Shown here piece by piece: positions 8,044 to 8,661 of a stretch of 26,231 nt of DNA. The notes below the pieces were generated by a model. It did not search any database, was not told the origin of the DNA, and saw only the letters and a list, made by a program, of their open reading frames with translations. The translations under genes and the position numbers were made by a program. Within the stretch, counting starts at the first letter, position 1; every line of letters starts with the position of its first letter. Source of the DNA: a virus; IMG/VR virus record IMGVR_UViG_3300042731_005304. The stretch is one strand, 5' to 3'.

Positions 8044-8661
8044 TTATCTTGATGATAAAAACTCCTCAGTTGTCGTTGTCTTTATATTGAACCTCTTCAT
8101 CTGAGCTATCGCTCTTACTGTATTCTTTTCGTCAACTCCGGCACATGCATCTTCAACCAACTTAATAAGTCCATAGTCAAGTGCATCCATGGCCGTGTTT
8201 AACACACATACATCAGTAGCAATACCACAAATATAGATCTCGTTTGACCTTTCAAATAATCCAGCAAGACCAGTTTCTGTTTCTTTATCGTTTTCAAGAA
8301 AACCAGAATAGCTATCGACATTTTCTCTATAACCCTTTCTGACGATAAACTGAAAGCGGTCATGCTCTAGCGATGGCCTGAACTCTGCACCAGGCGTACC
8401 CATAACGCAATGATCCGGCCAGAGCATTTGTTTCCCGTAATCAACCTTTACTGTAGAGAAAGGCGCTTTGTTCTTCCAGACAGAAGCAAAAGAAATGTGA
8501 TTAGCTGGATGCCAATCTTGTGTAGCTATGATTCGGTCAAACATATTAGAGGCCATCAGCTTGTTGATATTCGGTATAATTTTATCACCATCATCAACAG
8601 CTAGAGCTCCGCCTGGACAGAAATCATTCTGTACATCAACTACGATTAAATATTTCTTCAT
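8044..8661 (-). CDS. pncA: Nicotinamidase/pyrazinamidase (isochorismatase family)
   Basis: LIVVDVQNDFCPGGALAV, QDWHPANHISF and WPDHCVMGTPGA are hallmark PncA motifs: the Asp/Lys/Cys triad context and the metal-binding His residues. I place the start at the internal MKKYL Met, which gives an ATGA overlap with the upstream clpP-like stop. The tracked ORF extends to 8694. Confidence 0.75.
   Translation of the reverse strand: MKKYLIVVDVQNDFCPGGALAVDDGDKIIPNINKLMASNMFDRIIATQDWHPANHISFASVWKNKAPFSTVKVDYGKQMLWPDHCVMGTPGAEFRPSLEHDRFQFIVRKGYRENVDSYSGFLENDKETETGLAGLFERSNEIYICGIATDVCVLNTAMDALDYGLIKLVEDACAGVDEKNTVRAIAQMKRFNIKTTTTEEFLSSR

Follow-up and report, generated by a model that had tools for sequence, protein, structure and literature searches.

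Why should a stretch of phage-like DNA carry a gene for a nicotinamidase (PncA), when no other gene of NAD+ synthesis lies beside it? The question is raised by an ORF at positions 8044..8661 of the window, by which we mean the whole stretch of DNA that was analyzed, a complete contig of 26,231 bp. The ORF lies on the minus strand, a detail missing from the preliminary description, and encodes 205 aa between an ATG start (8661-8659) and a TAA stop (8046-8044). A longer reading from a GTG at 8694, present in the mechanical list of ORFs, was disfavoured, since the JGI call also has 205 aa and the NCBIfam profile starts at residue 1.

The encoded protein matched the Pfam family PF00857 (Isochorismatase) as one domain with 88.4 bits (cutoff 27) over residues 5-199, that is, essentially at full length. 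It also passed, by a small margin, the cutoff of the NCBIfam equivalog model NF008623, “bifunctional nicotinamidase/pyrazinamidase” (179.5 bits vs. 174), and other NCBIfam models stayed far below their cutoffs: 26.9 vs. 370 for the biuret amidohydrolase BiuH and 18.7 vs. 195 for the hydrolase PRK11440. The top PDB match was the Acinetobacter baumannii nicotinamidase 2WT9 (E 1.2e-57). All of the seven best matches among solved structures were nicotinamidases, including those of P. horikoshii, Leishmania, M. tuberculosis and yeast, and the alignments of the window protein with solved nicotinamidases were full-length.

The printed alignment with P. horikoshii 1ILW pairs the catalytic triad Asp9, Lys109 and Cys152 with D10, K94 and C133, and the metal ligands Asp49, His51 and His84 with D52, H54 and H71. 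Loss of the catalytic Cys or of Asp/Lys had been named beforehand as evidence against a nicotinamidase; in the alignment none of these residues is lost. Further residues of the PncA motifs are His55, Phe14, Trp81, Tyr118 and Ala148, with Phe14, Trp81 and Tyr118 as residues of the pocket. Across 83 aligned homologues the triad, the metal ligands, Phe14, Trp81 and Ala148 were invariant, Tyr118 was found in 82 of the 83, and His55 was likewise invariant or almost so. An Asp/His/His metal site binds the pyridine nitrogen and sets nicotinamidases apart from other hydrolases of the isochorismatase family. The intact ORF, the equivalog score and the kept triad and metal site together identify the protein as a bona fide PncA. 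The preliminary description had called the motifs unambiguous PncA, and this is borne out by the NF008623 score above the cutoff, the match to 2WT9 and the kept active-site residues. The region 8044..8661 is a complete and apparently active nicotinamidase gene (predicted EC 3.5.1.19).

The rest of the window has the appearance of phage DNA. All long ORFs are on the minus strand except one of 177 aa on the plus strand (20531..21064), and 10 tRNA genes and one tmRNA gene are scattered between the ORFs. Nucleotide metabolism is represented by a class II-like ribonucleotide reductase (RNR), two ThyA-like paralogues and an NT5C nucleotidase; nucleases and RNA-related genes by a non-specific endonuclease, an HNH endonuclease, an ArfB-like RF-1 domain protein and a Thg1-like tRNA-His guanylyltransferase. 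There are also a NifS/IscS-like cysteine desulfurase, a radical SAM protein, a PolX-like fragment, an ATP-dependent DNA ligase and an 893-aa protein with major-vault-protein (MVP) shoulder and SPFH domains. Several genes match PHROG families. Virion hallmark genes (capsid, terminase, portal) were not found in the 26 kb, so the assignment to phages rests on the context and the relatives. Megablast against INPHARED gave no DNA-level match of the contig to any phage, and the best phage match of the window RNR is 35% identical (roseophage RNRs). Two related contigs, L026 (278 kb) and L027, are syntenic, with RNR, HNH, a small ORF, a 151-aa ORF, Endonuclease_NS, PncA and a 250-aa protein in the same order, while the gene order in a third relative, L038, is DHH, PncA, ThyA-like, a 63-aa ORF and an MVP-like protein. 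The phage setting of the gene, as described earlier, is upheld by the single-strand layout, the tRNA and tmRNA genes, the PHROG matches and the syntenic relatives on large contigs, and the contig very likely derives, as a fragment, from the genome of an uncultivated jumbo phage.

PncA is present in the window and in all three of these relatives (L026, L027 and L038) at 57-64% identity. Within the lineage the identity is 57-69%, compared with 50-56% for the best matches among cellular proteins. Cellular PncAs nearest to the window protein, at 50-55% identity, come from Alphaproteobacteria, Acidobacteriota, Balneolales, Bacteroidota and Spirochaetota, and point to no single donor or host. A neighbour-joining tree, which has no bootstrap and is indicative only, groups the window PncA with the proteins P0002-P0010; their sister group contains other phage-context proteins (those of L038, L001, L199 and L200). 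The dN/dS ratio of pncA is 0.16 for the pair L026-L027 (dS 0.97) and 0.115 for the window and L026, where dS is saturated (2.5). The GC content of pncA is 0.400 and its GC3 0.354, and the respective values for the other window genes are 0.406±0.019 and 0.392±0.057. The low dN/dS ratios and the matching GC and GC3 show pncA to be an established gene under selection rather than a recent passenger. Purifying selection keeps PncA in this lineage.

Directly upstream of pncA lies a co-directional gene for a ClpP-family serine protease (8658..9278, minus strand, 206 aa), in which the Ser-His-Asp triad is aligned. Its TGA stop overlaps the pncA start in an ATGA at 8658..8661 (minus strand; tcat on the plus strand). 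Downstream on the same strand follow a 114-aa ORF (7695..8039), 4 nt from pncA, a 250-aa phage-specific protein of the phrog_11543 family (6941..7693) and a DHH/DHHA1 phosphoesterase (5960..6931). From ClpP to DHH the genes lie close together, the 4-nt overlap being followed by gaps of 4, 1 and 9 nt, and this spacing suggests co-transcription. Promoter-like sites occurred at chance level in a consensus scan, and terminator-like sites exceeded those in shuffled sequences (9 vs. 2.7), some of them being on the minus strand inside the ClpP-DHH block; neither kind of site allowed an operon boundary to be placed. No NAD riboswitch or other RNA regulatory element was found near pncA, the Rfam matches being the tRNAs and the tmRNA only.

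Comparison with the relatives shows how far these neighbours belong to pncA. The overlap-coupling to the ClpP gene proposed in the preliminary description is correct as to the ATGA overlap, but ClpP is upstream of pncA in this contig only. A functional coupling of ClpP and PncA was rejected, as the upstream gene is an unrelated 137-aa gene in L026 and L027 and DHH in L038. For the 114-aa ORF, the only homologues found were those on two short contigs, L028 and L029, whose PncA sequence is identical to that of the window. The 250-aa protein follows pncA in L026 and L027 as well; it has only 43 clusters among 5.8 billion proteins, yet a profile-based scan found its relatives on at least 130 viral contigs of IMG/VR, with the nearest one on a UViG of 189 kb. 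We considered this protein as a partner of PncA or a hidden NAD enzyme and rejected it, since in L030, L032 and L034 it lies beside an RNA ligase or a thioredoxin, with no PncA, and since it is so widespread, on those at least 130 contigs. Its AF2 model (pLDDT 82) had no meaningful fold match, and tblastn against INPHARED no match. The ClpP, 114-aa and 250-aa genes are not conserved partners of pncA. As to the DHH phosphoesterase, its gene is directly upstream of pncA in L038, and this adjacency is a purely positional link; the phage phosphatase that assists NARP1, one of the validated phage NAD+ pathways, is a Macro-domain protein, unlike DHH.

Other phage-context PncAs have neighbours of a different kind. 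We took 25 IMG/VR loci on contigs of up to 316 kb, each with a PncA relative (33-50% identity), clustered their ORFs and confirmed the identities of the NAD genes with Pfam and NCBIfam models above their cutoffs. Twenty of the 25 loci had at least one further NAD gene (PncB, NadE, NadD or NadR-like) within 10 kb of PncA: nicotinate phosphoribosyltransferase was found in this interval in 17 loci, NAD synthase in 16, a NadR-like gene in four and NadD in three. A 212-kb UViG (L003) has a contiguous PncB-NadE-NadD-PncA block. In L001, which has the ATP-ligase and Thg1 in common with the window, PncB directly follows PncA. The sister-clade contig L199, which also carries rIIB, ClpS and a ClpA-like gene, has the order NadM/Nudix-PnuC-NadR-PncA with PncB 2.5 kb further downstream, and L200 has NadM/Nudix-PncA. 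The 735-kb phage LR756501 encodes PncB, NadE, PnuC, NadR and PncA inside 8.4 kb, and a bacterial PncA 57% identical to the window protein belongs to a NadM-PncA-NadE-PncB-PnuC-NadR operon. By guilt by association, these neighbourhoods tie the PncA family, phage copies included, firmly to NAD+ salvage, and they strongly back the pathway from nicotinamide via nicotinate to PncB, NadD and NadE that the preliminary description had outlined.

The same description had stated that PncB, NadD and NadE are absent from the window, and Pfam scans and tblastn with phage and bacterial queries agree: none of PncB, NadD, NadE, NadR, NadM and PnuC was found in the 26 kb, which extend 8 kb to one side of pncA and 17.5 kb to the other. 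Tblastn with NAD proteins also found nothing in the available sequence of L026, L027, L038, L030, L039, L032 and L034; in the first three no such gene lies within 10 kb of PncA. No NAD+-consuming enzyme was detected in the window, and the DNA ligase encoded there is ATP-dependent. Within the visible sequence PncA is solitary in this lineage, which is unusual for a phage PncA.

Intactness of the gene, its family, the conserved active site, purifying selection and the association with a pathway in other genomes are the observations from which an interpretation can start. They point to a catalytically competent nicotinamidase that probably serves as an auxiliary metabolic gene of an uncultivated jumbo phage and feeds Preiss-Handler NAD+ salvage. 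By homology, the metal held by Asp49, His51 and His84 would bind the pyridine nitrogen of nicotinamide, Cys152 would attack the amide with the assistance of Asp9 and Lys109, ammonia would leave, and the thioester would then be hydrolysed to nicotinate, as in the standard Cys-thioester mechanism. Nicotinate would enter the Preiss-Handler route (PncB, NadD, NadE) and yield NAD+. As PncB, NadD and NadE are not in the window, they would be supplied by the host or by unassembled parts of the phage genome. The likely benefit would be that during infection the NAD+ pool is larger or builds up faster, which may serve general demand or may recycle nicotinamide released by cleavage of NAD+, for example by NADases of host defence systems. 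The activity of the enzyme, its role in vivo and any counter-defence effect are inferred. Against the salvage interpretation stand the lack of partner NAD genes, of an NAD riboswitch and of an NAD+ consumer in the visible sequence, and the fact that an additional PncA is of use only where deamidation of nicotinamide by the host is missing or limiting.

A narrower version of this interpretation is that the gene is dedicated to counter-defence: the lone PncA, as a minimal device for rebuilding NAD+, would channel nicotinamide released by the NADases of Thoeris, SIR2, DSR or TIR systems into the host PncB-NadD-NadE route, and would rescue replication of the phage, above all where pncA of the host is absent or weakly expressed. 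Defences that deplete NAD+ do release nicotinamide, phages do rebuild NAD+ via NARP1, 2 and 3, and phage PncA co-occurs with genes of NAD+ synthesis; moreover, counter-defence was proposed for the NAD-jumbo phages, and complementarity of phage and host pathways was reported (Li et al., PMC11662467). However, the validated pathways are all without PncA, the Preiss-Handler route via host enzymes, with its four steps and its cost in ATP, may be too slow after NAD+ has collapsed, and no defence or anti-defence gene lies beside pncA. General NAD+ supply accounts for the data equally well, and we regard dedicated counter-defence as possible but rather unlikely. More doubtful still is the generalization that a stand-alone phage PncA is a minimal module for counter-defence or host manipulation, which would fill a gap in hosts that have PncB, NadD and NadE and little or no pncA, and so turn nicotinamide released by defences into NAD+. 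The enzyme could instead act by removing nicotinamide, either relieving product inhibition of phage or host NAD+ consumers such as sirtuins and ADP-ribosyltransferases, or starving competitors of nicotinamide. Nicotinamide inhibits sirtuins, and nicotinamidases relieve this inhibition, as yeast Pnc1 does for Sir2; this known activity and the solitary position of PncA in the lineage would fit. Yet the window and the related loci yielded no sirtuin, no ADP-ribosyltransferase and no further consumer of NAD+, phage PncA elsewhere stands beside biosynthetic genes and not beside consumers, and removal of nicotinamide would de-inhibit host NADases of the SIR2 type too, all of which makes this role improbable.

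Two further readings question the substrate or the origin. Specificities in the isochorismatase superfamily are numerous, and pyrazinamide is a further substrate of PncA enzymes. With this breadth, and with neighbours in nucleotide metabolism (the two ThyA-like genes, RNR, NT5C and a nuclease), the substrate might be another amide, such as a modified base, a nucleotide or an antibiotic-like pyridine or pyrazine carboxamide. This is nevertheless highly improbable: the nicotinamidase equivalog cutoff is passed and the next models reach at most 27 bits against cutoffs of 195-370, the nicotinamidase-specific metal site and Phe14, Trp81 and Tyr118 are all conserved, and close PncA relatives are found in NAD operons. 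The contig might also come from a bacterial chromosome, a plasmid or another element, pncA being a cellular housekeeping gene. The lack of capsid, terminase and portal genes in 26 kb and of a DNA match in INPHARED, and an RNR only 35% identical to its best phage match, would fit that case. A non-phage origin is very unlikely, however, given the essentially single-strand layout, the scattered tRNA genes and tmRNA, the PHROG matches, the clade-specific 250-aa protein, which at least 130 viral contigs of IMG/VR encode, the rIIB gene of the sister-clade L199, and the identity of 50-55% to cellular PncAs against 57-69% within the phage-like clade. Neither removal of nicotinamide, nor another substrate, nor a non-phage origin is favoured over a phage nicotinamidase that would feed NAD+ salvage.

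How new is such a gene? It is rare among deposited phages, as 13 of the 50,697 INPHARED records match the window PncA (the matching PHROG family has no annotation), though it is not new. Li et al. (2024, PMC11662467) mentioned phage-encoded pncA when they described 174 “NAD-jumbo phages” in which a salvage or Preiss-Handler pathway is complete, viral pncAB was reported in a gut-virome study (PMC11780533), gp275 of phage G was annotated as PncA-like (PMC12484599), a nicotinamidase ORF was listed for a gut phage group (PMC10607447), and NAD-salvage islands were described in cultured freshwater jumbophages (PMC13573597). None of these five papers reports an enzyme assay of a phage PncA. The gene is less novel than the preliminary description implied, given PMC11662467, PMC11780533 and PMC12484599. 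Phage pncA is already published, and the distinctive point here is only that PncA is solitary and selected. For now it counts as an ordinary auxiliary metabolic gene, well supported but of a type that bioinformatic work has reported before.

Its interest lies in the contest between phages and bacterial immunity, in which NAD+ is central; three phage pathways that reconstitute NAD+ have been demonstrated, none of them of the Preiss-Handler type. In large phages PncA usually lies within clusters with PncB, NadE, NadD, NadR or PnuC, whereas in one apparent jumbo-phage lineage purifying selection maintains a PncA that is solitary in the visible sequence. If a PncA of phages, by itself or together with its cluster, restored NAD+ after attack by NADases, a further pathway would be added, and it would be explained why a step that consumes nicotinamide is worth carrying. 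The solitary PncA would then represent NAD+ reconstitution based on the Preiss-Handler route, with the PncB-NadE-NadD-PncA operons of jumbo phages as the complete form.

With bacterial PncAs (2WT9, E. coli PncA and NF008623, M. tuberculosis 3PL1, P. horikoshii 1IM5) the window protein has in common the fold and length, the Asp-Lys-Cys triad, the Asp/His/His metal site and the pocket aromatics. Like the A. baumannii enzyme, it is of the “long” form with an insertion between the metal ligands. It differs in being encoded on a phage-like contig, outside any NAD operon, and in being 50-56% identical to the best cellular PncAs. Among phage proteins, gp275 of phage G and the nicotinamidase ORFs of gut phages are likewise phage-borne members of the nicotinamidase/isochorismatase group annotated by homology; the phage G protein is outside the tblastn matches to the window PncA at E ≤1e-5 and is thus a more distant member of the family.

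Experiments have validated three phage NAD+ pathways, NARP1 and NARP2 (Osterman et al., bioRxiv 10.1101/2024.02.11.579819) and NARP3 (PMC13464706); PncA is not mentioned in these papers and is part of none of the three pathways. Their gene pairs, Adps and Namat in NARP1, Nampt and NMNAT in NARP2 (the NadV/NatV type of KVP40) and PnuC and NadR in NARP3, are absent from the window, where no PRPS-like, NAPRTase-family, CTP_transf_like or PnuC protein was found; this places the locus outside NARP1, 2 and 3. The purpose proposed for PncA, the upkeep of NAD+ in infection, is like that of the NARPs, and NARP1 and NARP2 also start from nicotinamide, but PncA destroys the amide that these two use directly, and its role is predicted whereas the NARPs have been validated.

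The NAD-jumbo phages are defined by a complete pathway, whereas the window and its nearest relatives are without PncB, NadD, NadE, NadR and PnuC within 8-17 kb of PncA. The genomes of NAD-jumbo phages exceed 200 kb; the window contig has 26 kb, with a syntenic relative of 278 kb and the 250-aa marker protein on a contig of 189 kb. With their clusters, such as those of L003, L199 and LR756501, the window has in common an apparent large-phage setting and a PncA of the same family, and with the clustered IMG/VR loci it further shares the radical-SAM family, Thg1 (L001 and L020) and the ATP-ligase (L001).

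The gene whose end overlaps the start of the nicotinamidase gene pncA encodes a ClpP-like protein (8658-9278, minus strand) that keeps the Ser-His-Asp triad. Its top-scoring models are those of phage "head maturation protease", with a score below the NCBIfam cutoff. Analysis of related phage-type contigs L032 and L034 and of the sister-clade phage contig L199 has shown that they encode ClpS along with a ClpA-like double-AAA unfoldase (L032, 18783-20798; L034, 14578-16469; L199, 120-2723). Because the relatives encode these Clp-type proteins, the ClpP-like protein may, judging from sequence, be a component of a phage-encoded Clp protease system and not a prohead protease.

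A DHH/DHHA1 phosphoesterase (5960-6931, minus strand) accompanies the pncA neighbourhood: its relative lies immediately upstream of PncA in the syntenic contig L038 (1-603) and adjoins the gene for the 250-aa protein in contig L039 (11291-12166). Almost no similarity was found between this phosphoesterase and solved structures; its candidate substrates may be nanoRNA/pAp or cyclic dinucleotides. Two divergent tandem thymidylate-synthase-like paralogues (3615-4433 and 4442-5335, minus strand), both with scores far under the family cutoffs, may belong to the dNMP hydroxymethylase or methylase type of enzyme that produces modified bases; the syntenic relatives L026 and L027 have ThyX instead of this pair. 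An 893-aa protein (694-3375, minus strand), whose counterpart in L038 (2368-4911) is 71% identical, combines major-vault-protein shoulder, Vault_3 and SPFH/Band-7 domains, a eukaryote-like combination unusual in a phage.

The translation-related repertoire of the window is large. It includes ten tRNA genes (160-367, 5370-5444, 9457-9606, 10214-10285, 11520-11593 and 12038-12267), among them two for tRNA-Asp, three for tRNA-Thr and two for tRNA-Gln, a tmRNA (19077-19343) whose tag is predicted to read GEEQFLMAA, an ArfB-like RF-1 domain protein (11183-11518) and a Thg1-like tRNA-His guanylyltransferase (23283-24059).

A NifS/IscS-like cysteine desulfurase (13433-14752, minus strand) scores about 312 bits with the NifS model, which is below the equivalog cutoff; the PHROG family that it matches carries no annotation. 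The desulfurase might supply sulfur for Fe-S clusters or thio-modification, for instance for the radical SAM enzyme of the window or for the thiolation of tRNA or DNA. That radical-SAM protein (22349-23281, minus strand) has MoaA- or viperin-like matches, all of them weak. Its homologues are interspersed among PncA, PncB and NadE genes in 11 IMG/VR loci (for example, L003, 6273-7127; L017, 4368-5267; and L005, 11944-12870), a recurrent association with NAD clusters.

One more NAD cluster is found in the 735-kb huge phage LR756501.1, in the region 403070-443675 (L201), where genes for PncB (12247-13419, in coordinates of the region), NadE (14211-14861), PnuC (17999-18538), an NadR-like protein (18648-19604) and PncA (20001-20606) are located together. 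Li et al. 2024 (PMC11662467) credited this phage with nadD as its sole NAD gene; given the PncB/NadE/PnuC/NadR/PncA cluster, that statement may therefore undercount the NAD genes of LR756501.
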